From positions 1-54,654 of the IMG/VR virus record IMGVR_UViG_3300044515_000008: a stretch of DNA of 54,654 bases; one strand, 5' to 3'. The notes beneath the pieces were generated by a model, which was not told the origin of the DNA, did not search any database, and saw only the letters and a list, made by a program, of their open reading frames with translations. Below, piece by piece: positions 5,296-45,261 of this stretch. The translations under genes were made by a program, and so were the position numbers. The DNA comes from a virus (lineage: Duplodnaviria > Caudoviricetes). Numbering within the stretch: position 1 is the stretch's first letter; every line of letters starts with the position of its first letter.

Positions 5296-5306
5296 CCAAC
5301 GGGTTT

Positions 5307-5350
5307 AATCCCCCGGCAAACTCTCTGCGATAAGAGCTTGCCGGGGGATT
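5307..5350. terminator. Hairpin between SSB and primase genes
   Basis: AATCCCCCGGCAA...TTGCCGGGGGATT inverted repeat. Confidence 0.45.
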
Positions 5351-5359
5351 GCTGTTTGT

Positions 5360-6094
5360 TTACGGGGTTGGGTTTTCCACTCGCGCTAGCAATGCCTGCA
5401 CTTCGGGTGAGTCGGCAGGGTTGCTAGTTGCTGCTGCCATCCCGGGCTGCCCTTGCGGGAATGTCATGGTCGGGTGCGGTGCGGGAATGTCGTAAACGGC
5501 GCGTGCCGCCGCGAGCTGCTCGGCTGCCCCTACGGTGGGCGCCACCGTCGCCGGTACGGCCATAGCGGGAAGTGCGGCCGGTGCGGCAGGGGCCGTCTGG
5601 ACGGGCGGGGCAGGCATCGGGGCCGGTGCCGCTGGCGCCGGTGCGCCTTGCATGATCATGCCGGACGCTGGGGGAACGTACACGGCCGTGTAAAGCTTCT
5701 TTGGTGAACCGGCGCCGGTTTCCTCTTCGCCGATGAATTGAATGCCGAGTACCGCACCGACAAGGATATCGGTTGCGCCGGATGCGCGAACGGCGACGGC
5801 TAGCGCGCGCTGGGTTTCACTCGACGCCCGGATGTAGACGCCACGAATACCGTCGTCGTAGGCAATGAGCGGGTCACGCACGATTGTTTGCAGGTCAATG
5901 CGGACCTGGTAAATGGGCTGCGTCTTGAGATCATCCCAGTATTCGAGGTCGCCGAGCTTGCCGTCAGTGCGGAATTTCCGCGACTGCTGCTTGTCGTGAA
6001 TGGCAACAATAGTGCCTTGAACGAAGTCACCAATGGTGGCGAACTTAGCCGAGGCAACCCCGCTTCCCAGAATTAGGTCGCGTGCGTCTGACAT
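5360..6094 (-). CDS. Probable single-stranded DNA-binding protein (actinophage type)
   Basis: AKF..IGD.V.G.I...WDD...Q..IDLQT..RDP...DDG.R.VY pattern, Pro/Ala-rich tail, position in replication module. Confidence 0.55.
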   Translation of the reverse strand: MSDARDLILGSGVASAKFATIGDFVQGTIVAIHDKQQSRKFRTDGKLGDLEYWDDLKTQPIYQVRIDLQTIVRDPLIAYDDGIRGVYIRASSETQRALAVAVRASGATDILVGAVLGIQFIGEEETGAGSPKKLYTAVYVPPASGMIMQGAPAPAAPAPMPAPPVQTAPAAPAALPAMAVPATVAPTVGAAEQLAAARAVYDIPAPHPTMTFPQGQPGMAAATSNPADSPEVQALLARVENPTP

Positions 6095-17105: not shown

Positions 17106-17510
17106 CTAGGGACTTTCTGCGTGGATGTGCCGGAAATTGGATTGACCCCGAACTGTCTTTGCTCGGTGCGGCCGGTCCGGATTGTGTACGGGCTTCGGTA
17201 GGACCCTTGTGGGCGCCGATGAGGACATGGGAACGACCTTGATAAGATCTTTGTCCGCCAGATTAACCGTGATCGGCATGACCTGGTCGCCTGAATCCCA
17301 ATGGTCTACAAAGGTGCGCGCGTTTGGTGGCGTCTGGTATTCGTAGCGAACGCGGGTCTTAACATCGCTGAATCGGATCTTGTCGCGGTCCACTTTGATG
17401 CATCGCGCATTGGGATACGCATATGCTATCGCGTCGGCAATCGCGCACTTGCCTTTATTCTGGCGCTGGGCTAACTCAATGGCCGCTTGCCGGACCCTTG
17501 CTTTGATCAT
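17106..17510 (-). CDS. Hypothetical protein
   Basis: CAIADAI...I.VD...IRF....RY.Y.TP; RBS present. Confidence 0.65.
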   Translation of the reverse strand: MIKARVRQAAIELAQRQNKGKCAIADAIAYAYPNARCIKVDRDKIRFSDVKTRVRYEYQTPPNARTFVDHWDSGDQVMPITVNLADKDLIKVVPMSSSAPTRVLPKPVHNPDRPHRAKTVRGQSNFRHIHAESP

Positions 17511-18129
17511 GCTGCGTTCCCTTTTCCAGGTAGCTAATGACTCTTTCCAGTACCTCCAGCAATAGCGCGCGCTCCCCGGTGGTCAATTCATCATTGGCCA
17601 ATTCCAGGGCTATGGACTCCAACTCGACAAGCCGATCAACAATCGCCGGTCGAGTGGGCGCCGAGCACGTCGGTTCTGTAGTGGTGGCGGTAATAGGTGG
17701 CGGCGACTCCACAAAGGTGCCGTCAATGACGATAGGTGGACGCGGGATAGGTGCATGTGGCATAGGCGGGTACGTCTTGCCGTCGAGCCCCCGGGTGTCA
17801 CCAGGTGTCCCGTTTGGGACACCTGCAATGTCCCTGCCTACGGTGCTTCTGCCTGCCCCGGTGGCCGCCGCAATCGCTCGCACTGATAGCCCCGCTTCAC
17901 TCAAGGTGGCTACGGCCTCACGTCGTCGCTCACGCGGTAGCCGGAGTGCGGCCCCGTGGAATTCCGCGACGCAATAGTCGTCCCACGATTCGTAGCCTAG
18001 TGCCTGGTCGGCCCGGCCGTAGTAAGCGGATTTAATCTTTGTCCACGCCATATCGATATGGCCATAGATTTGCGCGGTTAGTTCGCGCGCTTCATTCTCG
18101 GTGAGTAGCCGTAGATCCGGTTCATTCAT
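17476..18129 (-). CDS. HTH DNA-binding protein
   Basis: LGYESWDDYCVAEF...GLSVRAIAAATGAGRSTVGRDI...GLDGKTY. Confidence 0.75.
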   Translation of the reverse strand: MNEPDLRLLTENEARELTAQIYGHIDMAWTKIKSAYYGRADQALGYESWDDYCVAEFHGAALRLPRERRREAVATLSEAGLSVRAIAAATGAGRSTVGRDIAGVPNGTPGDTRGLDGKTYPPMPHAPIPRPPIVIDGTFVESPPPITATTTEPTCSAPTRPAIVDRLVELESIALELANDELTTGERALLLEVLERVISYLEKGTQHDQSKGPASGH

Positions 18130-18368
18130 CGGCGCGTCTTTCGCGGACGTCTCGGGGAAGGTGGCATTACGCATATCCCCAGTCTCCATATTACGTGGTG
18201 CACTTCGCGGGTGGTCGCATTGAAATACCAGGCCGCGTAGCCGCACTCCGAACACGTTGTGCCGATCAACGGCAATACCGTATCCTCTTGGCCCGCGCCT
18301 TGCGGCCTTTCCATCTTGACCCGTGGTTGACGGACCACCGGGGAATACGGGGTTTTGCGCTTACCCAT
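18126..18368 (-). CDS. Hypothetical protein
   Basis: Coupled ORF with CSECG. Confidence 0.5.
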   Translation of the reverse strand: MGKRKTPYSPVVRQPRVKMERPQGAGQEDTVLPLIGTTCSECGYAAWYFNATTREVHHVIWRLGICVMPPSPRRPRKTRR

Positions 18369-19440: not shown

Positions 19441-19830
19441 ATGACAGATCTACAGTGGCAAGCTCTCGGCCACGCCGTGGCGTACCGGCTTGACGAACTC
19501 GGCTATAGGAGTGTCGCAAAATTCGTCGATCAATCCGGCACCGACTTCTCAATCAAAACAATTCGCCGTCTTGTGAATGGCGGCAAAGTCAGCCGGTCGA
19601 CTCTGATCAATGTCGAAAAGTATTTGTTCTGGGGACCCGGTTCAATGGATGCGATCTTAGCGGGAAAGAAGCCATTCCCAAAGAAGGTCGAACCGGTCAC
19701 CGATGATGAACGCATACTGTGGGATACGCTCGTTCAACTCAACGTGGACCAGATTGACAGGGTGGAACATATCGCATTGTTCCGCGCGCACGCGAGTAAG
19801 TCTGACTCGGCCGAAAGTGCGGGTGCGTGA
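19441..19830 (+). CDS. Putative immunity repressor (XRE-like HTH)
   Basis: LG.AV..R..ELG..S...FSIKTIRRLVNG..VSRSTL..VE..L.W.PGS..AILAG typical of actinophage repressors; start could be 19372. Confidence 0.7.
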   Translation: MTDLQWQALGHAVAYRLDELGYRSVAKFVDQSGTDFSIKTIRRLVNGGKVSRSTLINVEKYLFWGPGSMDAILAGKKPFPKKVEPVTDDERILWDTLVQLNVDQIDRVEHIALFRAHASKSDSAESAGA

Positions 19831-21011
19831 TGGCCTGGACAACGAAGAACACCAAAGGCGAATTCCGCGCACTGTACCGCGACCCTGCGGGTAAGGCGCT
19901 CACCGTAAAGGACAGCAACGGCGACACCGTTTACTACCCCGGCAAGCGTGCCGCTATGGCCGCTGGTCGCGATGCCGAGTCGACGGCCCGCCGCAAGGCA
20001 CCGCAACGCACAACCACCGGCGGCGATATTCCGTGGGGTGATTGGTGGGACCAGATCGGCGGCAACCGCCACAAGACCAGCGACGGTGACGCTAACGAAA
20101 AGATCGTTGTCGAAAAGCATATCCGCCCGACGTGGGGTACAACGCCGCTCAACCGCATTACCAACCATGACATTAAGGAATGGATTAAAGAGCTAGCGCT
20201 CAAGCACTCCCCGAAGTACGTCGAATACATTTACTATATTTTGAAGGTCAGCCTAGACCTCGCCGTCGATGAGAAATACGGCGTGCTCGACGCAACACCA
20301 TGCACCGCGAAAATGGGCCTGCCTAAAATCGTAAAGAAGGCAATGCCCTATATCACCGATGCGGATATCGAACTGTACCGCGTGCACGGCCTACGCAAGG
20401 ACTACCTAGCCGTACTCGAATTCGCTTACCAAAGTGGCATGCGGCCTAGCGAAGTTTGCGGGCTGCACACGGAAGCAATCAATTGGGATACCGGGTGGTG
20501 CTATGTCGCCAACTCACTTGTACCGGGAATGATGGCAATCCGGCCGTTCACCAAAAACGGCGAAACCCGGCCCGCTCCGCTTATCGACCAGGCACTCAAG
20601 CTAGTTGTCGCCGCACTGGACGGCCGCGAACTACGCAACGGGTGCGGCCTTGAACACCTCGACGGCAAGCCATGCGCGGACGACCTGATTTTCCGCACCG
20701 TACGCGGAGCACCGATCACCCCCCGCAATCTCGCGCAAGCCATGCGGAACGTAGCGAAGAAAGGTGGATTCAAAGGCAAGTCCCCATACGCGGCTCGACG
20801 CGGCGCGGCAACGGCCGCCATTGTCGGCGGTGCCCCACAACTCGACGTCGAGAAAGGTCTAGGTCACGCCAACCTTGACGAGACGCGCGGGTATCACCAG
20901 ATGACACCCGAAGTGCGCAACCGCCTGCAAACCGCGCGCGACGCGGCAAGCGCCGCACCGGCCGCACCGGCATTGACCATTGTCCGCCCGAACACCACCC
21001 ACGCGGCATAA
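19827..21011 (+). CDS. int: Tyrosine integrase
   Basis: GMRPSE (R), TKNG (K), YAARR, LGH, RGY (Y) catalytic motifs; N-terminal arm-binding and SAM-like regions. Confidence 0.9.
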   Translation: MMAWTTKNTKGEFRALYRDPAGKALTVKDSNGDTVYYPGKRAAMAAGRDAESTARRKAPQRTTTGGDIPWGDWWDQIGGNRHKTSDGDANEKIVVEKHIRPTWGTTPLNRITNHDIKEWIKELALKHSPKYVEYIYYILKVSLDLAVDEKYGVLDATPCTAKMGLPKIVKKAMPYITDADIELYRVHGLRKDYLAVLEFAYQSGMRPSEVCGLHTEAINWDTGWCYVANSLVPGMMAIRPFTKNGETRPAPLIDQALKLVVAALDGRELRNGCGLEHLDGKPCADDLIFRTVRGAPITPRNLAQAMRNVAKKGGFKGKSPYAARRGAATAAIVGGAPQLDVEKGLGHANLDETRGYHQMTPEVRNRLQTARDAASAAPAAPALTIVRPNTTHAA

Positions 21012-21026
21012 AGGAGGTTGACCGCA

Positions 21027-22199
21027 ATGCCCAGAGAATCCCGCGCGACGAAAGACATATTCAGAAACCTGTCCCACGGCGATGGAATGTGGGAATTAGT
21101 CGGCGAGAAATTCATCATGACCAGCGTTGAAGCATTCCGCAAAGACGCACGTAGCTATCTCGGCGACCAGACGGAATTGAGGTCAAGTACGCTCGACTCA
21201 CCGGATGTCGATTGGTATTCAATCTGGCGCTACTTCAAAACCGGTGTACCCCTTGCCGACGATGGCCCGTGGTCCCGCTATCTCCCATGCGAAACATGCG
21301 GCGCCGAATACGAACGACCGTGCCTAAGCATGAAGTCATCCGGCCGACGGCCCATCGCTCAACCCCACGATGGCCGCCACTTCGTAGGCCAGTACGTATC
21401 GGGCTCGACAGTGGACACCGACGCACCGGCGCACGCCGACACGGCGACCACCGAACCGGCCCCGGCAAACCCTGCCGTCGTCGAGCACGCCGAACCGGCC
21501 ACGATCACCCGGACACGCAAGCCCCCCGCCGGTTGGGACCGGTCCGCGCACCGCACCCCGTGGTACGTCCTAGCCGACGGTGAGTATGTGGGCTACGCCG
21601 ACCGCACGAGCGCGGACGGCTGGACGTGGTTCACCGCGCACACGATGGACGGCACACCGGTGGCGAACACGCGCCGCAAGCCGGGGCAAGACGAGTGGCG
21701 TTTCTCACACCTAGCCGGGGCTGAGATGGCCCTAGCGGGCCGCACGGCCACGGGCACGGCACAACCGGCCACCCGGCCCGGCCACGCCGACACGGCCACG
21801 CTCACCGGCCACGCCGACAACGGGCACGAGGTGGACGCCACCGACGACACGGCCACCCGGGCAGCGATCGGCCGGGCACACCGCGCGGACACGGTAGAGG
21901 CCCCGCTAGCCGGGTTCCCGGCCATGTTGTGGCGGTCCGCGTGTACGTGCCGGTGGGTGAGCGACCGATACGACGACAAGCGGACGGCCGGGCGCGCCCA
22001 CGATCGCCACGTCATGGACGTGCTCACGGCCGCCGGGTCTGTAGCGGAACCTGTAGCAAAGTCCTCCGGGAAGATTGCTACAGGTTCCGCAAAGCGGCCC
22101 GCAAAAATGCCCGCTGACCAGCGGAAGTATCGTCACAATGTCGATCATGCCCGAACACTGCCGGAAACCCGTTTTACCAGGTCAACGATTTATGCATAA
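21027..22199 (+). CDS. Multi-domain Zn-finger protein
   Basis: AAGGAGG RBS; CETCGA...PC...H.GR and WRSACTC.W...H..H motifs. Confidence 0.65.
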   Translation: MPRESRATKDIFRNLSHGDGMWELVGEKFIMTSVEAFRKDARSYLGDQTELRSSTLDSPDVDWYSIWRYFKTGVPLADDGPWSRYLPCETCGAEYERPCLSMKSSGRRPIAQPHDGRHFVGQYVSGSTVDTDAPAHADTATTEPAPANPAVVEHAEPATITRTRKPPAGWDRSAHRTPWYVLADGEYVGYADRTSADGWTWFTAHTMDGTPVANTRRKPGQDEWRFSHLAGAEMALAGRTATGTAQPATRPGHADTATLTGHADNGHEVDATDDTATRAAIGRAHRADTVEAPLAGFPAMLWRSACTCRWVSDRYDDKRTAGRAHDRHVMDVLTAAGSVAEPVAKSSGKIATGSAKRPAKMPADQRKYRHNVDHARTLPETRFTRSTIYA

Positions 22200-23215: not shown

Positions 23216-23800
23216 CTAGGACTGTGCGGACAGTTCCGCTATCAGATGTCTCGCGTGCTCGTCTTCGGGGGTGCCGCTATCTGTGTACCGGTCGCCTACC
23301 CATGAACACGAACACAATGCGCGCCACGTCATCAAGCCCCCTATCGTTTCCGGGGTAATGCTGCGCTTGTGGCCGGGGGCCGTCTCGACCCTCGCGCGAG
23401 TGCGGGTGATCGGGATCACCGACGCCCGGCCGGTGGGCGCCTCGATCCGCTCGCGTCCCTTATGGACACGGGCAAGAATCTTGCCGTGGTCATTGACCGA
23501 CAAGCACGCTTTCCCTGCCCGCTGAAAGCACACGCGGCACTTCCCGAACTCTGACCAATAGTCGTCGTCGGGGGTGGCGTCCACCGTGGCGGGCTCGTCG
23601 AGTATGGGGGCCGGTCGGAGTGGCGTGGGGTCGATCGGTTCGGGTGCGGGGCCGTCGACGTGCGGCCGTCCCTTGTGGTGGCGTAGTAGTTCCTTGCCCT
23701 TGCTGGCGTTGTTGCTTATGCCGACGCACGGGCGGGCCGGTCGGGCGCCGCACGTATCGCACGTGTCAAGATCAACGGCACGGTCTAGTATTGCTTGCAT
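23216..23800 (-). CDS. Multi Zn-finger protein, paralog of 21027-22199
   Basis: Two CxxC...C...HKGR units plus WRALCSC.W...H..H. Confidence 0.7.
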   Translation of the reverse strand: MQAILDRAVDLDTCDTCGARPARPCVGISNNASKGKELLRHHKGRPHVDGPAPEPIDPTPLRPAPILDEPATVDATPDDDYWSEFGKCRVCFQRAGKACLSVNDHGKILARVHKGRERIEAPTGRASVIPITRTRARVETAPGHKRSITPETIGGLMTWRALCSCSWVGDRYTDSGTPEDEHARHLIAELSAQS

Positions 23801-24485: not shown

Positions 24486-24956
24486 TCATAAGGCGCGGAC
24501 TAGTTCCAAAACGCGCGCGAGTAGCTCCGACGACGGATAAGAACCCGAGTCCCGGACGGGCCTTGCCGTCGTTTGCACGTGCACGCGCACGGGCAAAGGC
24601 TCGACCGGTTTCGGTGGCTGCTGCTGCTCAAGCTCTTTTGACACGCGAGTCCGCTTTCTTGTTGTGGGTGGCAGGCCGTTTCCGCCGGTCGGCCGAATCC
24701 GGACACCCGCGTTAATGAGCATCCGGCGCGTCTTGCTGTACGTGTAGCCAAAGGCTTCTGCTACCGCGCGGATAGTCTGCCCTGCGCGGTAGGCGTCGGC
24801 CATCCCCGGTGGGATGATCGGAACGTCTGAACGTATTGCGACCCTATGCCGCACCAGTATTTCGCGCACACGTGGACGTGACATTTCGTAGCGCGCTGAA
24901 AGTTTATTCATTGATTCGCCCTGCTGATAGAGGTCGACTAGTTCGTCGTCATCCAT
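24486..24956 (-). CDS. Tandem HTH DNA-binding protein
   Basis: Two LY..G.S...L...Y..S...VR..L...GV.IR repeats. Confidence 0.8.
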   Translation of the reverse strand: MDDDELVDLYQQGESMNKLSARYEMSRPRVREILVRHRVAIRSDVPIIPPGMADAYRAGQTIRAVAEAFGYTYSKTRRMLINAGVRIRPTGGNGLPPTTRKRTRVSKELEQQQPPKPVEPLPVRVHVQTTARPVRDSGSYPSSELLARVLELVRAL

Positions 24957-26856: not shown

Positions 26857-27705
26857 ATGACGGACACAATCCAGAGTCGGCTACTGGGGCAAAAGCTGAG
26901 GTCAGCGCGCGAAAACGCGGAGCTTGCCCGTGAGGAAATGGCTACGCTGCTCGGGGTCCAGCCGCCGACGGTCAGCCGGTGGGAGCGCGGTAGCCGCAAG
27001 ATCAGCAACCGCGACCTGGTCCGTTACCTCCAGCACTGCAATGCGACCACCGAAGAAATGGACGAATTGCAGTTGCTTGCGGACGACTCGGAAGTATCCG
27101 TGTGGATAAAGTTTCAAGCGCACACCGATCAAAGTCTAATCATGGCCGCCATCCTTCGAGCCGAAGAGCAGGCAATCCGTATCACGTACTTGTGCAACGG
27201 AACTGTGCCGGGGCTTCTGCAAGCGCCCGCCTATTCGCGCGCCATTATGCAAACCGCCGGTGTATCCGATGACGTAGCTAGGCAGCGCGTAGCCGAACGG
27301 CAGGGACGCGGGCAAGTTATAAGACGTCGAGATACCCCAGTCCAGCTAATTGCAATACTTGATGAGTCGGTCATTCATCGCCAAGTGGGCGGCCCGGAAA
27401 CATTCTTGCAGCAACTACGATATCTCGTGGAGTGCGCAGAGCTTCCGAACGTCACCCTTAATATCGTTCCCTTTACGGCAGGATGGACACAGCTACAACG
27501 TGGACAGTTTTTCATCATTGATTCAGCTGACACTAAGTCGGTAGTGCATCAAGAGATCCAAGATGCGAGCTTCTTTTTCAATGATGCCGTTCACGTCGAC
27601 GACGTCTATCGTCATGCCGTCGAGGAAACGAAAGGGAAGGCATTGAGTCACGAAGACTCAATCCGACTCATTGTTAATCAGATTGAGAAATTGGAGAAGG
27701 AATAA
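26857..27705 (+). CDS. XRE-family HTH + DUF5753 regulator (Scr1/WhiJ-like)
   Basis: LG.KLR.ARE...VSRWERG HTH; VPGLLQ.PAY.RA, R..RQ, ILDESV.HR.VGG, QL.YL, PNVTL.IVPF. Confidence 0.92.
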   Translation: MTDTIQSRLLGQKLRSARENAELAREEMATLLGVQPPTVSRWERGSRKISNRDLVRYLQHCNATTEEMDELQLLADDSEVSVWIKFQAHTDQSLIMAAILRAEEQAIRITYLCNGTVPGLLQAPAYSRAIMQTAGVSDDVARQRVAERQGRGQVIRRRDTPVQLIAILDESVIHRQVGGPETFLQQLRYLVECAELPNVTLNIVPFTAGWTQLQRGQFFIIDSADTKSVVHQEIQDASFFFNDAVHVDDVYRHAVEETKGKALSHEDSIRLIVNQIEKLEKE

Positions 27706-27961: not shown

Positions 27962-28225
27962 GCGCTCTCCGGGGCAACGCGGGGCCGGGCACGCTGGCCA
28001 GTCGGCGGGGGCAACACGCACCGTCAAAGAGCAGTCACTAAACGTGCACCATCGTGGGCGGGGCACTGCTGGCCGGTGGCGTCCACCCGCTAGCAAGATC
28101 TCTCCGGGCGCGTGCGTCCATGCCTGCCTGACACCGGTCACGCGGCAGAGAGCGCTACAGGGGCAGCACGCGCGACGCCACCCGGAACGCACCACCCGGC
28201 AACCGGGCGCGCCGACACCGGGCAC

Positions 28226-28273
28226 AAAAAAAGCCCCCCGCCCACCGGCATCACTGCCAGGGACGGGGGGCTT
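28226..28273 (-). terminator. Intrinsic terminator
   Basis: AAGCCCCCCG...CGGGGGGCTT stem with A7 on the left (U-tract on minus strand). Confidence 0.75.
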
Positions 28274-28288
28274 GCTTGTCGGCGGGGG

Positions 28289-28702
28289 CTAGCCGTCGGC
28301 CGCTACGGGCTCGACGGCCGGGAACACTGCGGCGGCCGGAACACGGACGACGTCGAGCACTTCCCACGAACCGGCATCTTTGACGTACCGCACAACCGCG
28401 ATTTCCCGGATAGGTTCGTCGGCAACGCCACCATCATGCCGTAGTCGCCATTCCGTGCCGCCGAGTCGACGCGTGAGGGTGTCGAGGTTGCGGAATGTGT
28501 AGCGCGTCCCGTGTCGACCGTAGCCGGTGTGCATTGCCGTACCCGGCTGAACCTCGACAAGCGGGATCATATCGACGGGGCATATCGGCGGCCCTACGTC
28601 GAGCCACCCGCGCGCTACGCGAACGAGGTAATCACACTTGGGGCATTGTGCCCCGATAAGTCTTGACCGCTGCTGTTTCGGAATGTTGTCGCTGGCGTCC
28701 AC
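28289..28702 (-). CDS. Hypothetical protein with N-terminal Zn ribbon
   Basis: CPKCDY.VRV.R.WL..G.PICP; RBS AGAAGGTAGGA. Confidence 0.65.
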   Translation of the reverse strand: MDASDNIPKQQRSRLIGAQCPKCDYLVRVARGWLDVGPPICPVDMIPLVEVQPGTAMHTGYGRHGTRYTFRNLDTLTRRLGGTEWRLRHDGGVADEPIREIAVVRYVKDAGSWEVLDVVRVPAAAVFPAVEPVAADG

Positions 28703-29957: not shown

Positions 29958-30355
29958 GGCCGGTACTTGATCGGCGCTATGTCGTGTCCGTCTTTCACGT
30001 CGACCATATCGAATCTCATGAGCGGGTACTGTTCGCGAAACTCGCGCATGCGGTCAACGATGAACTCCTTATCGGGGCTCGACGATGAATCCGTGCGATA
30101 CCACACGCGGCCCCGTTCGCCCTTGACGATTACGGCCCATTGCACCGGGGCTGTCAGCTCGGCGATACGGGCGCGCAACTCGTTATTTTCCTCTTGCAGC
30201 TCGGCTAGCGCGGCGGCCCTATCGGCGCGAATTTGTTCACCCATTTCATAGCGGTCGCCGCCGAACCATTCGTCAAGTTCTTCTGGCGTCCACTCCCGTC
30301 GGTGGTCGCGGATCGGCTCTTCGCCGACGGATTGAGCCATTGTCATATCGTGCAT
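29945..30355 (-). CDS. Hypothetical protein (cassette gene)
   Basis: Preceded by the conserved leader and GAGG RBS. Confidence 0.7.
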   Translation of the reverse strand: MHDMTMAQSVGEEPIRDHRREWTPEELDEWFGGDRYEMGEQIRADRAAALAELQEENNELRARIAELTAPVQWAVIVKGERGRVWYRTDSSSSPDKEFIVDRMREFREQYPLMRFDMVDVKDGHDIAPIKYRPWAQ

Positions 30356-30437
30356 GGTGCCTCTTTTCGTTGTCTCTTCGCTGGCGTGCCCTAGCCGGAT
30401 ACGTGAATCCGTGCCCGGCTTTCCCGGGTGCTAGGGC
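30356..30437 (-). repeat. Structured leader repeat copy 1
   Basis: GCCCTAGC-A-CCCGGGAAAGCCGGG-CA-CGGATTCACGTATCCG-GCTAGGGC..CCAGCGAAGAGAC..GAGGCACC-ATG. Confidence 0.9.
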
Positions 30438-30447
30438 GGTTGTCTAG

Positions 30448-30699: not shown

Positions 30700-30924
30700 C
30701 TAGGCTTCGTTGTCTAGCGTCACGACGTCAAGCTCGAACACGTTCGCGTAGTACTCGTTCCGGTATTCGTCGGGCCATTCCACGAGTACCTTAGCCGTGC
30801 CGTTGTATTCGACACCCCGCGTCACGCTTACGAATTTCACAGTGTCGCCCCGGAAGTCGGTGACGGTGTCGCCTTCGGCCACTTCTTTGCCGGTCCGGGT
30901 ATCGGTCACGCGGTACTTTGTCAT
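30700..30924 (-). CDS. Hypothetical protein (cassette gene)
   Basis: Preceded by the leader repeat; GD.VTDFRG pattern. Confidence 0.75.
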   Translation of the reverse strand: MTKYRVTDTRTGKEVAEGDTVTDFRGDTVKFVSVTRGVEYNGTAKVLVEWPDEYRNEYYANVFELDVVTLDNEA

Positions 30925-31006
30925 GGTGCCTCTTTCCGTTGTCTCTTCGCTGGGCGTGCCCTAGCCGGATCTTGAATCCGTGCCCGGCTTTCCCGGGTGC
31001 TAAGGC
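30925..31006 (-). repeat. Structured leader repeat copy 2
   Basis: Same architecture; loop TTCAAGA. Confidence 0.9.
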
Positions 31007-31013
31007 GGGTAGT

Positions 31014-31277
31014 TCACATATCGTCGCGCGGGTAGTGGTTCGGTCCCTCGCACAGTGAAGCTGAAAGGCCGTGCGGGCAAGTGGGGTAAAGCCGTTCCGC
31101 CAGTAGCGGGTACAGCTTGCCGTCGAACGGGGATTCTTCAACCTCGCAAAAAGCGTGTGTGCTTGACCGGCCGTCCATAAAGGCAAGCACCCGGGCTTCC
31201 AAGTTGTCACCCTCGAAGGTGACCAGGTAGCCGTGTCGCGCGGCGCAATTGTGGGACTCGATTGTGATGGTGTCCAC
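31014..31277 (-). CDS. Hypothetical protein (cassette gene)
   Basis: GTG start after the leader; ends PTCPHGLSASLCEGPNHYP. Confidence 0.7.
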   Translation of the reverse strand: MDTITIESHNCAARHGYLVTFEGDNLEARVLAFMDGRSSTHAFCEVEESPFDGKLYPLLAERLYPTCPHGLSASLCEGPNHYPRDDM

Positions 31278-31360
31278 GGTGTCCTCTTTCGGTTGTCTCT
31301 TCGCTGGGAGCGCCCTAGCCGGAGCTTGCATCCGTGCCCGGCTTTCCCGGGTGCTAGGGC
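31278..31360 (-). repeat. Structured leader repeat copy 3
   Basis: Same architecture; loop TGCAAGC. Confidence 0.9.
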
Positions 31361-31366
31361 CGATTG

Positions 31367-31555
31367 CTACTGGCGTGCCTGAATCCGGTAACGAGCGGCC
31401 ATCGCGTATCCAACTTCGCCGTCGTCGGTTTCAATCCAGATACCGTCACCGTCCCGGTAGCGCGCGATGATCATTGTTCCACCGGCGAAAACGTCACCTT
31501 CGCGCAAGCTGTTGACCGACACGGTTTGTGTCTTGACTGCGGTTGCGTTCGTCAT
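31367..31555 (-). CDS. Hypothetical protein (cassette gene)
   Basis: ATG start after the leader; V.SL.EGD.F beta-rich pattern. Confidence 0.7.
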   Translation of the reverse strand: MTNATAVKTQTVSVNSLREGDVFAGGTMIIARYRDGDGIWIETDDGEVGYAMAARYRIQARQ

Positions 31556-31637
31556 GGTGCCTCTTTCCGTTATGTCTCTTCGCTGGGAGAGTCCTAGTCG
31601 GGGCTTGATACCCGCGCCCGGCAACCGGGGCTAGGAC
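31556..31637 (-). repeat. Structured leader repeat copy 4 (diverged, compensatory changes)
   Basis: GTCCTAG/CTAGGAC, CCCGG-TTG-CCGGG, CGGG-TATCAAGC-CCCG, then TCCCAGCGAAGAGAC. Confidence 0.85.
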
Positions 31638-31818
31638 CATTGTTCTCACGCTATTTTTTAGAACCCGGATTTTCCACTTCTGGCGTAGGTGGCGCGCGTC
31701 CCGTGTGAGACGCCTTCCGTGCCTAGCCGCGTGTCCCGAATTCCTGTTGCCGGTGCGGGGGCTGTAACCCCGGTGCCGGTCCCTCTTTCCTTGCACCCGT
31801 AGGGTATCCCGATTCGGG

Positions 31819-31834
31819 GGGTGTTTAAACACCC
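31819..31834. promoter_or_regulatory. Perfect 16-bp palindrome, candidate operator
   Basis: GGGTGTTTAAACACCC upstream of the cassette operon. Confidence 0.4.
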
Positions 31835-31889
31835 TAGCGGCAACGAACGTGTAACGATACCTAGCAACGGGTTGACACGAATGGGGGAC

Positions 31890-31935
31890 AAAAAAAATCC
31901 CCTGCCCATGACCCGTGAGGATCATGAACAGGGGA
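31890..31935 (-). terminator. Intrinsic terminator downstream of holin
   Basis: TCCCCTG..CATGA/TCATG..CAGGGGA stem followed by T8 on the minus strand. Confidence 0.75.
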
Positions 31936-32093
31936 CCCGCTCCACAGCGTCCCAGCGAAGAGACGAGAGAAGCAAGCACGAGGATACTAGGTCGAGCAGG
32001 ATCGATCTTCGAGCACACCGGTTTCGGCACATAACCGCAGGTCAGGACATGATCAACTCGGAGCCGGCAAAAGTTGTTGATCATGAAAATCCG

Positions 32094-32136
32094 GGCTCGT
32101 CGGCGGGGGCTCGTCGGCGGGGGCTCGTCGGCGGGG
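32094..32136. repeat. Short tandem repeat (GGCTCGTCGGCGGG x3)
   Basis: Directly visible 14-bp unit. Confidence 0.75.
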
Positions 32137-32155
32137 CCGGTGGCGTCCACCTGGC

Positions 32156-32440
32156 TTACGCGGCCGGATCGATCGGGGCAGGCAGCGTGACCGGCGGGGC
32201 CACGATGGGCGGCAGTGCAGTGGACGCCACGGGCAGCAGTGACGCCGTACCGGGGTCGCCGACACCACGGGCAACTAGACCTTTCAGCAGTGACACGAGC
32301 GCGGCCCCGCCACCGACACCTAGGGCCGCTTTCCAATCGAGGTGAAACGCGTCCACCCCGGACAGTCCGATCACCGATAGCGCGCCACCGACGAAACTCG
32401 ACACGACGCGTTCGGCTAGGTCTTTCAGGTAGGGCGACAT
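32156..32440 (-). CDS. Holin (r1t-like)
   Basis: DLAERVVSSF...DWKAALGV.GGAALVSLLK; follows the endolysin. Confidence 0.85.
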   Translation of the reverse strand: MSPYLKDLAERVVSSFVGGALSVIGLSGVDAFHLDWKAALGVGGGAALVSLLKGLVARGVGDPGTASLLPVASTALPPIVAPPVTLPAPIDPAA

Positions 32441-32452
32441 AGCGGGACCCCT

Positions 32453-33376
32453 TTACTTCGAGCGTTGCGGGAATGCGATGCCGAGTCGGCCGTTACCCTG
32501 ACTGGTGTAGTGAATGGCGATACCTTCGCACCCGTCGGGCAGCGCCCACACCGCACGCTGGCGATCTTTCAGCGTCCCGGCCGTGGGGTATCCGTTGCCG
32601 CCACTAGGGGCGACCAGCGTTGCACTGGCGCCAATGCAGATCAGCTGATAGTCGACGCTGCCCCACGTTGCATTGAGCACCACCCATTGCGAACCGATGA
32701 CGGAACTATTCGAACCAACCTCGATGGGGTATCCGATATAGTCACCGTTGGGTGCGAGTGGCAAAGTTTGAATAGCAATCCCGGTCATGATTCCATCCTC
32801 GACTGTCGGCGTAATCGCAGTGTCCCGCGTAGGCGTCCACCCGTTAACGTATTGATCGGTGTCGACGGTGCCGACGAAACCGGGCAGGTTCGCGGCCGAC
32901 GAATTTTGCCACAACACCAATTGTGGGTGACTCCACCCGAGCGAGCTGCCATACCGCGCTGCCCAGATATCGGTATTCCCGTCAATCCAATTGACGGGGT
33001 CGAGTGTCGTCGTGAGTAGGTATCTCGACGTGTACACGCGGAACGCTACCGTGCCGGTGCGCTTGCGGAATTGATCCCGGAACGCGCGGACCCATCCGGC
33101 CGTGGCGCTACTGTCCTCAATGTCCAGCACCGGCCGTAGCGTCCACGCACGCGTGAGATAGATATCCGCAAAATGATTAGCTTCCGTGACAGGGTTTCCC
33201 ATGTCGGAGAAATGGTAGGCGCCCACTTGCTTGACGTGCGCGTGATCCCAGTGCGACGACCATGCCGGGTCCACGCTCGTCGAGCCTTCCGTGATTTTGA
33301 TATAGAACCCGTCCGCGTCGCGAATAGCAGTCGGCCAATCAATCGAGCTTTGGTAGTGGCTGATATCAATGAGCAT
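32453..33376 (-). CDS. Endolysin, GH25 muramidase
   Basis: IDISHYQ, IKITEG, GAYHF, LDIE, VYT, LWQ, VDTD motifs. Confidence 0.9.
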   Translation of the reverse strand: MLIDISHYQSSIDWPTAIRDADGFYIKITEGSTSVDPAWSSHWDHAHVKQVGAYHFSDMGNPVTEANHFADIYLTRAWTLRPVLDIEDSSATAGWVRAFRDQFRKRTGTVAFRVYTSRYLLTTTLDPVNWIDGNTDIWAARYGSSLGWSHPQLVLWQNSSAANLPGFVGTVDTDQYVNGWTPTRDTAITPTVEDGIMTGIAIQTLPLAPNGDYIGYPIEVGSNSSVIGSQWVVLNATWGSVDYQLICIGASATLVAPSGGNGYPTAGTLKDRQRAVWALPDGCEGIAIHYTSQGNGRLGIAFPQRSK

Positions 33377-33387
33377 CGCGGGACCCT

Positions 33388-34395
33388 TTACTTGAGCGCC
33401 ATCCACCGGAAGGTTGTCGAACTCGAATACGTGCCGTCGAGCATGTCAAGGGTTGAACCGATTGTGCCACCACTTTTGAACACGCTAGTACGCGCACTCA
33501 CCGGGGTAAGCGGATTCGTGAAGTTGCCAGACACTACGGCGGACAGGCATGCGATAGACGCAATCGTCGACGCACCGGCGGTCAGTAGCGCCACGCAAAT
33601 TTGCATACCGGCCTCTAGCGTAATCGCGGTAAACGTCGCGCGTGCTACGGCGTCGGCAACCGTAAGGTTAATCGAGCCGGACGCGACCAGCGCAAGATCT
33701 CGCTGGGTATATCCCTTATAGATTCCCCACGTCGACGTGCCGCCAACCTGGGCAACGGTCGGGAATACCCGAATCTCGCTAATCGAATTCTCGGCTTGCG
33801 ACACCATGCGTTCGAGGTAAAGGAAACTCGCCGTCAAGGTAACCGTGCCGTTGCACTGCGCGCGAGACACCGACGAAAGCTTATCGGTGTAAAAGTTCTG
33901 GTCGTCCGTCACACACGAGTAGGGCACGCCACCGAATTGCCGGGCGTCCGTGACTTGCGCCGCGTCAATGGAAACGTCGGTAGCCGGAACCGCAATGGTC
34001 GCAAGGCTCACCTCGTACATTGCGGTATTCCGGGTGCACCCAATAGCAAGCCCGGAACCGGCGGTGCCCGTGAGCACGTCCACCACAATCTGATTAGCTA
34101 CGTAGTCAGCACGCGCCACGATACGATCAATCCTGGCAAGCGTCGCATGAGCGGTAGCAATGGGGACGATCTTTTCAATAGTGATCGTGCCCCATTCCCC
34201 TTCCATCCAAACCTCACCGGTCTTAACCTTTACCTGCATACCGGTCGAGTCGGCGTACACCAGCAATTCGTTAAGGACATTGCGGAGTACACCGGACACA
34301 GTGGGCCGTCGCATGATCTTTCGCCACGTGTCTTCACCGATCGAAGATCCCGGCCCCGAGTCAAACGGCGCGTAGACATCCATAAGCGTTGCCAT
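33388..34395 (-). CDS. Minor tail / receptor-binding protein
   Basis: PFDSG...W...GV...MQVKV..G...RIDRIV...YEVSLA.I.V...TDAR N-terminal domain. Confidence 0.8.
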   Translation of the reverse strand: MATLMDVYAPFDSGPGSSIGEDTWRKIMRRPTVSGVLRNVLNELLVYADSTGMQVKVKTGEVWMEGEWGTITIEKIVPIATAHATLARIDRIVARADYVANQIVVDVLTGTAGSGLAIGCTRNTAMYEVSLATIAVPATDVSIDAAQVTDARQFGGVPYSCVTDDQNFYTDKLSSVSRAQCNGTVTLTASFLYLERMVSQAENSISEIRVFPTVAQVGGTSTWGIYKGYTQRDLALVASGSINLTVADAVARATFTAITLEAGMQICVALLTAGASTIASIACLSAVVSGNFTNPLTPVSARTSVFKSGGTIGSTLDMLDGTYSSSTTFRWMALK

Positions 34396-42948: not shown

Positions 42949-45261
42949 CTATCCGCCTTTCATTGATACTGCTGGACGATCAACGTTGTGCATAGCCGAG
43001 ACGGCCCGATCCACAAGGGACATACGCGGTGCATCCCGATCCACGTCCGTCATGAACCCCACTTGCGATTTCAACGTCACGTCAAAGGCAACGGCTCCAA
43101 CGAGCGCGCAACCCGCAACGGTCGTGATCACGATTCGAGGATCGAACGCCGAACCGGCCGACGTGCTGCCACCGTCCGCAACGGACACCGCCGCGACACC
43201 GTCCACTGCGGAACCGGCCGACAACCCGGCACCGGCCGGGGCACCGACAGACGTACTCGTCGTCACCGTCGCGTCGAGCGCGGCACCGGAACCACTGGCC
43301 GTATCCGTCGGCCACACCGTCACGGTTGTGGCGTCCACCGGGGCAGCGATCCCGACCGCGTATCCAGCCGCAACGGCGACGAACGCAAACGTCACCACGG
43401 CCGGATCATCGGCCAGTACCGAACCGGCCGCGCCGGTGTCGAGCACGCCCGTGGCCGGAGTGGCGTCGAGCGCCGCGCCCGTGGCCGTCGAGCCCGTGTC
43501 TACCGCCACGGTGCCCGGGGTGGCGTCGAGCGCGGCGCCGGTCGCCGACGGCCCGGTGTCGACGGCCCCGATACCCGGGGCGATGTCGTCCGCTAGCGCA
43601 CCGCCAACGGCATTGACCGCACCAACAGAAACCGCGCCTTGCGGGTCCCCAGCTTGCCCGCTACCGGACGCTACGTCCGCCGGTGCCGTAGCGGCCGTGG
43701 ACGTCGTCACCGTGGCGTCAGCGGCGGAACCCGTGGCCGTCGAGCCCGTGTCTGCTGCCCCGTTGGCCGGGGTGGCGTCGAGTGCGGCGCCGGTTGCCGA
43801 CGGCCCGGTGTCGAGCACGCCCGTGGCCGGGGTGGCGTCGAGCGCCGCGCCCGTGGCCGTCGAGCCCGTGTCTGCTGCCCCGTTGGCCGGGGTGGCGTCG
43901 AGCGCGGCACCGGTCGCGGGTGCTACGTCCGCCGGTGCCGTAGTGGCCGTGGACGTCGACACCGTGGCGTCGAGCGCGGAACCCGTTCCGGCCGGGCCGG
44001 TGTCGAGCGCGCCGGTTGCCCCGGTGGCGTCGAGCGCGGCGGCCGTGGCCGTCGAGCCCGTGTCTGCTGCCCCGTTGGCGGGGGTGGCGTCGAGAGCGGC
44101 GCCCGTTGCCGACGGCCCGGTGTCGAGCGCGCCGGTAGCACCGGTGGCGTCGAGCGCGGCGCCGGTCGCGGGTGCTACGTCGGCCGGTGCCGTAGTGGCC
44201 GTGGCCGTCGACACCGTTGCGTCGAGCGCGGCGCCCGTAGCCGTCGAGCCCGTATCGAGCGCGCCGGTTGCTGGGGTGGCGTCGAGCGCGGCGCCGATCG
44301 CCGACGGCCCGGTGTCGAGCGCGCCCGTGGCCCCGGTGGCGTCGAGTGCCGCGCCGGTCGCCGTCGAGCCCGTACCCGCCGTGCCGGTAGCACCGGTGGC
44401 GTCGAGTGCGGCGCCGGTGGCCGTCGAGCCCGTGTCTGCTGCCCCGTTGGCCGGGGTGGCGTCGAGCGCGGAACCGGTCGCCGTCGAGCCTGTACCGGCC
44501 GTGCCGGTGGCGCCGGTGGCGTCGAGCGCGGCGCCCGTTGCCGACGGCCCGGTGTCGAGCGCGCCGGTGGCCCCGGTTGCGTCGGCGGTCGCGACAGTCC
44601 CGTCACCCTGTACCGCGTTGGCCGATGTTCCGCTAGCGCCAAGGACTTCGAGCGAAACGATGGCGTATTTCTGGCCGGTGGGTGCGGTGAGCCCGGTGGT
44701 TTTCGCACCGGCCGCACCGGCATCGGAGTAGTACGCGCCATAGTTCGTTTCGTCGCCGGTGACGTCGACGTACGTCACTTCGCTTGCCGCGACATTGATT
44801 GTCTGCCATGTACGGCTAGCGCCGGAAATTTCGTTCCAGTCGGACGTTGCCGTGACCACAATGGAGTTTGCTTGTGTTGTGGTCAGGGACAATGTCGGTG
44901 CGCCCGTGGTGTTTGTCTTCGCGGTCGCGCCGATGCCGGATGATCCGGAGAACCGTAGACAGTTGTAGCCCCATGACGTTGGGCTACCGGTAATCGCTTG
45001 TGACAGGGTGAACGTTTGCGAGGTTGGGCACGGTGCCGTCCACACCGAAACGCGGCAATATTGGTGTACCGCAACGTCTTGCTTGAGTGTGTAGGTGAGG
45101 CTGCCACCGGTAGGCGTCGCCGGTGTAAAGGCCGTGCCGTCTGGCGCAATGGTGAAGATCACCAGGACATCACCGGCGACTACCGTCACCGACTCGGTTT
45201 TCGGTGTGGTGCTACCGGTCCATGTTGTCTCGTATTTCGCGACGAACGTAGGTCCGGCCAC
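42949..45261 (-). CDS. Large Ala/Thr/Gly repeat virion protein (head fibre/appendage candidate)
   Basis: Beta-rich N-terminal domain then many ATGAALDAT-containing repeats. Confidence 0.75.
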   Translation of the reverse strand: MAGPTFVAKYETTWTGSTTPKTESVTVVAGDVLVIFTIAPDGTAFTPATPTGGSLTYTLKQDVAVHQYCRVSVWTAPCPTSQTFTLSQAITGSPTSWGYNCLRFSGSSGIGATAKTNTTGAPTLSLTTTQANSIVVTATSDWNEISGASRTWQTINVAASEVTYVDVTGDETNYGAYYSDAGAAGAKTTGLTAPTGQKYAIVSLEVLGASGTSANAVQGDGTVATADATGATGALDTGPSATGAALDATGATGTAGTGSTATGSALDATPANGAADTGSTATGAALDATGATGTAGTGSTATGAALDATGATGALDTGPSAIGAALDATPATGALDTGSTATGAALDATVSTATATTAPADVAPATGAALDATGATGALDTGPSATGAALDATPANGAADTGSTATAAALDATGATGALDTGPAGTGSALDATVSTSTATTAPADVAPATGAALDATPANGAADTGSTATGAALDATPATGVLDTGPSATGAALDATPANGAADTGSTATGSAADATVTTSTAATAPADVASGSGQAGDPQGAVSVGAVNAVGGALADDIAPGIGAVDTGPSATGAALDATPGTVAVDTGSTATGAALDATPATGVLDTGAAGSVLADDPAVVTFAFVAVAAGYAVGIAAPVDATTVTVWPTDTASGSGAALDATVTTSTSVGAPAGAGLSAGSAVDGVAAVSVADGGSTSAGSAFDPRIVITTVAGCALVGAVAFDVTLKSQVGFMTDVDRDAPRMSLVDRAVSAMHNVDRPAVSMKGG
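43420..44590. repeat. Intragenic ~60-78 bp tandem repeats
   Basis: Recurring GTGGCGTCGAGCGCGG core. Confidence 0.9.

Follow-up and report, generated by a model that had tools for sequence, protein, structure and literature searches.

A single inverted copy of a repeated leader tag in the 3′ untranslated region of a phage late operon, a candidate antisense element

The window analyzed here spans a complete IMG/VR virus record (54,654 bases) whose G+C content is ~60% and whose completeness is estimated at 91%. Its minus-strand genes run, from high to low coordinates, through terminase, portal, and structural genes to a GH25 endolysin and an r1t-type holin. Past the terminator of this late operon and a gene-free spacer lies a second minus-strand operon of small genes with repeated leaders (Table 1), which by our own reading would end at a second hairpin-plus-T-run near 28272-28228. 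The replication genes are also encoded on the minus strand, beyond the plus-strand regulator and integrase. The large terminase shared only ~24-26% identity with actinobacteriophage terminases among the matches listed, and DNA searches for both near and distant relatives returned no DNA-level match to the locus among cultured phages. Scanning the entire window for Rfam families and tRNAs likewise gave no match. An ORF on the plus strand that overlies the site (31821-32345, 174 aa) was judged spurious, because it had no family match and is antisense to the holin.

Table 1. Coordinates of the features described in the text, numbered from the first base of the window (CM, covariance model)
Feature	Coordinates	Strand	Details
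Endolysin (GH25 muramidase domain)	32453..33406	-	PF01183 6e-22; phrog_291
Holin (r1t type), final gene of the late operon	32156..32440	-	PF16945 3.8e-16; phrog_443 6e-18
Holin 3′ UTR carrying the seed (217 nt)	31939..32155	-	holin stop 32156; no other intervening minus-strand terminator
Overlapping -10-like words TAGTAT and TATCCT	31981..31989	-	letters only; promoter scan negative
Candidate anti-leader seed	31950..31964	-	minus-strand RNA reads GUCUCUUCGCUGGGA, reverse complement of the leader tag
Intrinsic terminator of the late/lysis operon	31890..31938	-	stem 31938-31895, then T8 31897-31890
Gene-free spacer, terminator to leader 1 (255 nt)	31640..31894	-	shares blocks with G001
Leader cassette 1	31553..31639	-	tag 31588-31574 (0 mismatches); ATG 31555; gene 31555-31367 (62 aa); CM 85.6 bits
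Leader cassette 2	31275..31362	-	tag 31309-31295 (0 mismatches); GTG 31277; gene 31277-31014 (87 aa); CM 108.7 bits
Leader cassette 3	30922..31008	-	tag 30955-30941 (14/15, 1 mismatch); ATG 30924; gene 30924-30700 (74 aa); CM 115.3 bits
Leader cassette 4	30353..30439	-	tag 30386-30372 (13/15, 2 mismatches); ATG 30355; gene 30355-29945 (136 aa); CM 106.4 bits
HTH_31+DUF5753 regulator	26857-27702	+	domain matches
HTH_58 protein	24489-24956	-	domain match
Tyrosine integrase	19827-21008	+	only recombinase found in the window

The intrinsic terminator that the initial annotation had placed after the motif on the minus strand was confirmed with slightly different bounds. Its stem comprises 20 pairs (9 of them G-C) with a loop of 4, and the 106-nt segment that contains it folded at -50.5 kcal/mol (z-score -5.9), a stability equaled in 0 of 200 shuffles. 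The seed is located on the strand transcribed in the late operon, 192 nt past the holin stop, with another 11 nt separating it from the terminator stem. That the site belongs primarily to the 3′ UTR of the holin/endolysin late operon, and is not a free-standing gene locus, is anatomically secure, since it lies between the holin stop and the only subsequent minus-strand terminator; a late-mRNA 3′ UTR had been mentioned in the initial annotation as the alternative to a separate small RNA, and this alternative was borne out. Judging from the gene order, the seed-bearing RNA would be transcribed with the operon and ended at the intrinsic terminator, and late transcripts should end in GUCUCUUCGCUGGGA, followed by 11 nt and the terminator. 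Because the seed is part of this UTR, the antisense sequence would be made every time the late operon is transcribed, and a promoter of its own would be unneeded.

Repeats of other kinds were also observed around the two operon ends. Directly past the holin stop, C-rich (minus strand) tandem repeats occupy 32093-32136 (14 nt × 3.1, 100% identical), and similar C-rich repeats (18 nt × 2) occupy 28266-28300, directly past the stop of the last small gene; each set precedes the terminator of its own operon. The near-palindrome GGTGGCGTCCACC was found in 9 copies at ≤1 mismatch against 0.13 expected, with exact sites at 32139-32151, 28075-28087, 23573-23585, and 21830-21842 and five further sites with 1 mismatch, some copies lying within coding sequence. 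By our own reading, the copies at 32135-32151 and 28071-28087 have 17 identical bases in common, and these two bracket the terminator together with the small-gene operon.

We then analyzed the distribution of the 15-nt tag, TCCCAGCGAAGAGAC, which is present exactly on the plus strand at the site and on the minus strand in the four leaders, where 15, 15, 14, and 13 of its 15 bases match. At ≤3 mismatches, the window contained these five matches and no seed match outside the five sites, against a shuffle mean of 1.16, and at least five matches were reached in 0 of 100 shuffles. The 13-mer core CCAGCGAAGAGAC occurred at exactly five sites in the whole record, namely the four leaders and the inverted copy, whereas its backwards control gave 0 matches. 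All five sites fall inside 1.6 kb, and the inverted copy is the sole one in its orientation in the record. When the 217-nt UTR was shuffled, complementarity of at least 15 nt to the four leaders arose in 0 of 300 cases, the largest being 11 nt. Two claims of the initial annotation were thus upheld: the 15-mer on the plus strand is opposite in orientation to the four leaders, and a minus-strand RNA from the site would be complementary to the segment upstream of each ribosome-binding site, perfectly so over 13-15 nt in all four. As a separate candidate, we considered the tag as an enhancer that pairs with 16S rRNA and rejected it: against an actinobacterial stand-in 16S, the longest complement was 6 nt, and 45 of 200 shuffled tags bound equally well.

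The leaders, ~87 nt long, share a common layout in which a CCCTAG/CTAGGG stem closes two short hairpins and is followed by the tag, 5-7 nt, an AAAGAGG Shine-Dalgarno (SD) sequence, and the start codon. In all four, the tag is positioned 16-18 nt upstream of the start codon. The consensus leader fold comprises 17 pairs, 2 of them with compensatory changes, which is weak support given that only four sequences contribute. Single-sequence folds recovered the element in cassettes 2-4 and a variant of it in cassette 1, with the tag unpaired, and the z-scores of ~100-nt leader segments were modest, ranging from -0.25 to -2.76. A window scan with a covariance model of the cassette detected exactly four copies plus a 16-bit echo at the inverted tag, and the cassette matched no Rfam family. 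Upstream of the first leader, a promoter-like TGGAAA-17-TAGCGT at ~31676-31648, which is among the blocks shared with the relative G001, would place the start of the small-gene transcript at the first cassette, although the promoter scan did not call it.

When we examined the four ORFs behind these leaders, we found that they encode acidic, soluble proteins with no hydrophobic segment: their net charges range from -1 to -9, and their highest 19-residue Kyte-Doolittle mean is ≤0.72, compared with 1.69 in the holin. One of them matches a phrog of unknown function, with three paralogues in the relative G001 by our own reading, while the other three had no phrog match at E up to 0.01, one having a sub-threshold Pfam match only. 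In type I toxin-antitoxin systems, an antisense RNA pairs with the leader of an mRNA and prevents its translation, the targets being small hydrophobic toxins. The present site resembles them in offering a candidate antisense to an mRNA leader; it differs in that the targets are four different, non-hydrophobic proteins and that the antisense sits in the 3′ UTR of another operon. The earlier suggestion that the targets are possibly toxic and that the site acts like a multi-target type I antitoxin was therefore abandoned, because nothing marks the targets as toxins and the defining feature of such systems is missing.

The initial annotation had further proposed an ~85-nt small RNA starting from a TATCCT -10-like hexamer at 31986-31981. 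The seed-plus-terminator layout of this proposal stood, and the letters of the hexamer are as described; the separate gene and the promoter signal did not stand, as the site belongs to the late 3′ UTR, the promoter scan over the site called nothing, and the -10-like words have neither a -35 element nor conservation. An independent ~85-nt RNA, running from its own promoter with a -10 at 31989-31981 to the terminator and made in lysogeny too, would find its best -10 in the overlapping TAGTAT (31989-31984), which matches TATAAT at 5 of 6 positions, fits TANNNT, and lies ~20 nt upstream of the seed; the arrangement of seed, hairpin, and U-run is also typical for small RNAs. TANNNT words are nevertheless at chance level in the 191 nt upstream of the seed, where two overlapping ones were seen against ~1.5 expected by our own arithmetic from base composition. 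Given also that the stretch is absent from the syntenic relative G001 and that the late operon would already supply the RNA, we regard an independent small RNA as quite unlikely.

We next considered whether the predicted RNA could pair with the leaders. Computed duplexes of the seed alone ranged from -25 to -29 kcal/mol, and opening costs were 2-4 kcal/mol for the target tags and ~10 kcal/mol for the seed. The latter cost arises because GUCUC/GGGAC forms a small local hairpin with UUCGCU in its loop, in which the seed is predicted to be half buried. With a net energy of ~-13 to -16 kcal/mol, pairing between seed and leaders is predicted to be favorable, and the seed is perfectly complementary over 13-15 nt to predicted-accessible sites near the translation start regions. 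Complementarity running on from the seed over the SD was rejected as a signal: duplexes that included the flanks were no more stable than flank-shuffled ones (fraction of shuffles equally good, 0.19-0.64), so that pairing past the seed toward the SD is explained by composition alone. Because the duplex would lie upstream of the SD, at ~-33 to -17 counted from the start codon, and pairing beyond it reflects composition, a block of ribosome binding is not assured. In a modeled read-through RNA (32000-31545), the helix between the seed and leader 1 had pair probabilities of 0.83-1.0 and continued over the SD and the AUG.

Taken as a whole, the reading that we tentatively place first, at well below even confidence, is that the inverted copy is an antisense element directed at the leaders and carried in the 3′ end of the late (lysis) transcript. 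The late operon would be read on the minus strand through 31964-31950, stopping at the hairpin plus U8 (31938-31890), and its 3′ end, whether still joined to the full mRNA or released by processing as a stable fragment, would pair with the 13-15-nt single-stranded tags. The paired tags would lie between the structured element and the SD of the genes of the next operon, which start at 31555, 31277, 30924, and 30355, and the duplex might lower translation or mark the leaders for double-strand-specific cleavage, so that the next operon would be shut down once the late genes are on. Repression may proceed by a standby-site effect, through a CU-rich flank, or by cleavage of the duplex; in RNA that reads through the terminator, the seed could form a helix with leader 1 in cis, hiding the SD and AUG of that leader. 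Should seed and leaders indeed pair, this would provide a compact coupling of the late programme to the shut-off of another operon, by means of an mRNA tail and a repeated leader tag. The broader notion that the tag works as an address label, a 13-nt mark placed before several genes and read by a complementary seed at the 3′ end of the lysis mRNA, is rather doubtful; were it true, the onset of late genes would automatically silence the neighboring operon without a dedicated regulator gene.

Small RNAs derived from bacterial 3′ UTRs offer a comparison for this antisense reading. Their seeds lie just upstream of the terminator of the parental operon, they are made with the mRNA or cut from it, and they act on several targets near translation start regions. 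They are host RNAs, mostly Hfq-dependent and from Gram-negative bacteria; their seeds are short and imperfect, and their targets are unrelated. The present element is like them in the placement of its seed just before the operon's own terminator and in having several candidate targets near gene starts; unlike them, it belongs to a phage, its complementarity is perfect over 13-15 nt, and its candidate targets are four copies of one leader within the same genome. [quoted passage not shown] A non-exhaustive search of the literature turned up no phage late operon described as carrying, in its 3′ UTR, an antisense to repeated leaders.

The comparison was further extended to relatives of the virus. 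A portal search gave 51 viral loci and 4 genome loci, of which the best, G001, was 79% identical, whereas no close relative of the endolysin was found. Across five relatives (G001-G005), the tag had 5 matches, one in each and all with 2 mismatches, and the backwards control also had 5, so the tag is absent from them beyond control level. Among viral contigs, the tag was found in 115 stretches; these were treated as chance matches, because each of the 80 listed holds a single copy. A scan with a 22-mer of the structured element gave 0 matches, and candidates with both tag and SD (2 metagenome-contig and 3 genome-contig loci) were all dismissed as lying in unrelated contexts. No relative carrying the tag, and hence no conservation or covariation of seed and target, was found in the collections searched, and the arrangement so far appears private to this record.

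The closest relative nevertheless preserves parts of the surroundings. In G001, the holin is followed by an extra gene, a conserved block ending in CTGACCTGC, the terminator, a partly conserved spacer, and small genes, some of which have a repeated structured leader of different sequence. The longest complement between the G001 UTR and its 17 leaders was 8 nt, a value equaled in 247 of 300 shuffles, which argues that the device is not a conserved trait of the lineage. The conserved block, GTTGATCATG..CTGACCTGC with an ATGATC/GATCAT hairpin (32035-32090 on the minus strand against L184 1760-1806), is kept in different reading frames, which points to a signal at the nucleotide level ahead of the terminator. 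A search with this block as the pattern returned 3 loci, two of them probably by chance (18 specified bases, by our own arithmetic) and not syntenic. The spacer (31640-31894, minus strand, against L184 1860-2250 in G001) shares the blocks GGGACACGCGG and CAGAAGTG.AAAA.CCG…AAATAGC, for which an operon promoter or a small RNA are possible readings. The ~92 nt from the conserved block to the terminator (roughly 31943-32034), with the seed inside, are absent from G001.

G006 (L192), found via a 79-aa protein, had one weak match to the structured leader (3308-3401, 17.4 bits); its linker differs, and that linker has no exact copy in reverse. G002 and G003 have, by our own reading, a different layout after the holin. 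In the 5 of 6 holin-linked loci analyzed (all except L238, which is G002), no UTR arm matched several downstream leaders. One of the loci, L239, has inverted repeats of 22, 16, and 13 nt (with a second direct copy) at 5216-5760, which flank a reverse-strand 76-aa gene just past the holin. This arrangement differs from the present one and was set aside as an equivalent device; it looks like an operator-flanked regulatory module.

Whether the inverted copy is itself under selection was assessed from its flanks. The 26 nt after and the 30 nt before the copy were aligned with the leader flanks, and in the 8 comparisons 170-999 of 1,000 shuffles reached the observed score; neither homology nor complementarity to the leader flanks was found beyond shuffles. 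The 13-mer is invariant across all five copies while the adjoining bases vary, and the copy thus appears as a sharply bounded 15-nt island that coincides with the block invariant among the leaders. An island whose flanks are at shuffle level argues for selection on the tag itself. A recent large inverted duplication would have brought flanks along, and an old one would not hold 15/15 by drift. A functionless by-product, in which recombination or template switching among the cassettes left behind a short inverted patch too young to have decayed, could draw on the patch being unique to this record and missing from the nearest relative, on its location in the ~92-nt stretch that resembles an insertion relative to G001, and on the repeated cassettes, which would be natural recombination substrates. 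Such an accident must, however, have copied exactly the invariant leader block with zero flanking homology. Because the island lacks flanks yet keeps 15/15, we consider a remnant of this kind unlikely.

A regulator of phage or host origin that recognizes the 13-15-bp tag in double-stranded DNA, making it a site comparable to stoperators or start-associated sequences, would explain the island equally well, since the island is kept intact in either orientation and its flanks are unrelated. Under this explanation, the four same-sense sites would act on the small-gene operon, and the lone inverted site might help to loop the ~360-bp promoter region or block opposite-strand transcription from the plus-strand regulator and integrase genes into the late genes. 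The five sites lie within 1.6 kb around the promoter-like, partly conserved spacer, and the window encodes candidate binders in the HTH_31+DUF5753 regulator and the HTH_58 protein, with a further phage HTH protein at 17479-18255. Weighing against a DNA site, there are only five sites, none of them by the regulator genes or elsewhere in the genome, and the tag has no dyad symmetry. Its constant, predicted single-stranded place between a structured RNA element and the SD also fits an RNA-level signal better. Our ranking leaves the antisense 3′-end reading in front by a small margin over a DNA site that is read in either orientation, which we likewise hold only as a tentative possibility. If the tag is a DNA site, the locus would still define a regulon beside the lysis cassette that is small and self-contained and comprises four soluble proteins, all of unknown function.

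The same pair of repeats could in principle delimit an invertible switch, with a recombinase flipping the segment between 31574-31588 and 31950-31964. The arms are 15 nt long, 100% complementary, and 361 nt apart, a geometry that resembles known promoter inversion switches, and the segment holds the terminator together with what may be a promoter block. There is, however, no invertase nearby, the only candidate being the tyrosine integrase 11 kb away; three more direct copies make the repeat primarily a leader element; and repeats flanking the homologous segment are missing in G001. A switch of this type is very improbable.

Among known systems, the closest analogue that we found is the start-associated sequence (SAS) of Cluster K mycobacteriophages, which also has a lone reverse copy. 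SAS is described as a 13-bp asymmetric motif, GGGATAGGAGCCC, that includes the SD and stands in one orientation before 11-19 non-structural genes, 3-9 bp from the start codon, and is often preceded by an inverted-repeat element (ESAS) (PMC3203893). The same paper describes a single SAS copy in the opposite orientation and away from a gene start in K1 phages, and leaves the ligand as "RNA or protein". Two reports from 2024-2025 still termed the role of SAS ill-defined (PMC11373665, PMC12699233). The ESAS repeats are described as showing no RNA covariation and as holding putative promoters (PMC3203893, PMC11373665). The present tag shares with SAS and ESAS a short asymmetric motif upstream of starts with a structured or inverted-repeat element before it, as well as the pattern of forward copies (here four) plus one reverse copy off the gene starts, here in a UTR. 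It differs in its sequence, in its distance of 16-18 nt from the start, in its place upstream of a separate SD, and in being limited to 4 copies, and its upstream element, unlike ESAS, shows 2 compensatory pairs among 17.

We examined the reverse SAS copy in the phage Anaya, which has 16 forward SAS copies and 1 reverse copy at 59870-59882. The latter is located within a 385-bp gene-free region after a terminator (59682-60066), and conservation of this region extends to 182 Cluster K records. An alignment of 7 phages showed an exact reverse SAS in 4, a degenerate one in 2, and a deletion of it in 1, and the copy was conserved no better than its surroundings. Unlike the inverted copy of the tag, it does not adjoin the terminator. 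The SAS parallel is suggestive and favors neither the RNA nor the DNA reading; if the pairing proposed here is real, it would offer a testable RNA-based answer to the role of start-associated repeats in actinobacteriophages. In the gene-free region of Anaya (L215 883-1267), an invariant TAGACT word and a conserved hairpin precede the anti-SAS, features that would suit a long leader or a transcribed non-coding RNA.

Precedents for a DNA-level explanation come from the same group of phages. Stoperators of Cluster A mycobacteriophages are described as established repressor sites, asymmetric and 13-14 bp long, that occupy short intergenic regions and down-regulate the genes downstream; they are many, spread genome-wide, bound by the immunity repressor, and set in one orientation relative to transcription (PMC9262239). 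For the inverted repeats adjoining SAS in Cluster K, the authors favored DNA-binding proteins (PMC3203893). The tag is like stoperators in forming asymmetric 13-15-bp sites in short intergenic regions. Unlike them, it comprises five sites in 1.6 kb, one of which is reversed within minus-strand transcription, and this inverted copy breaks the single-orientation rule described for stoperators (PMC9262239). Elsewhere in the window, many 12-mers recur at multiples of 60 nt at 43270-44560 on the minus strand, an internal tandem repeat inside a 770-aa ORF (42949-45261) that, judged from its size and position, is taken to be the tape-measure gene.
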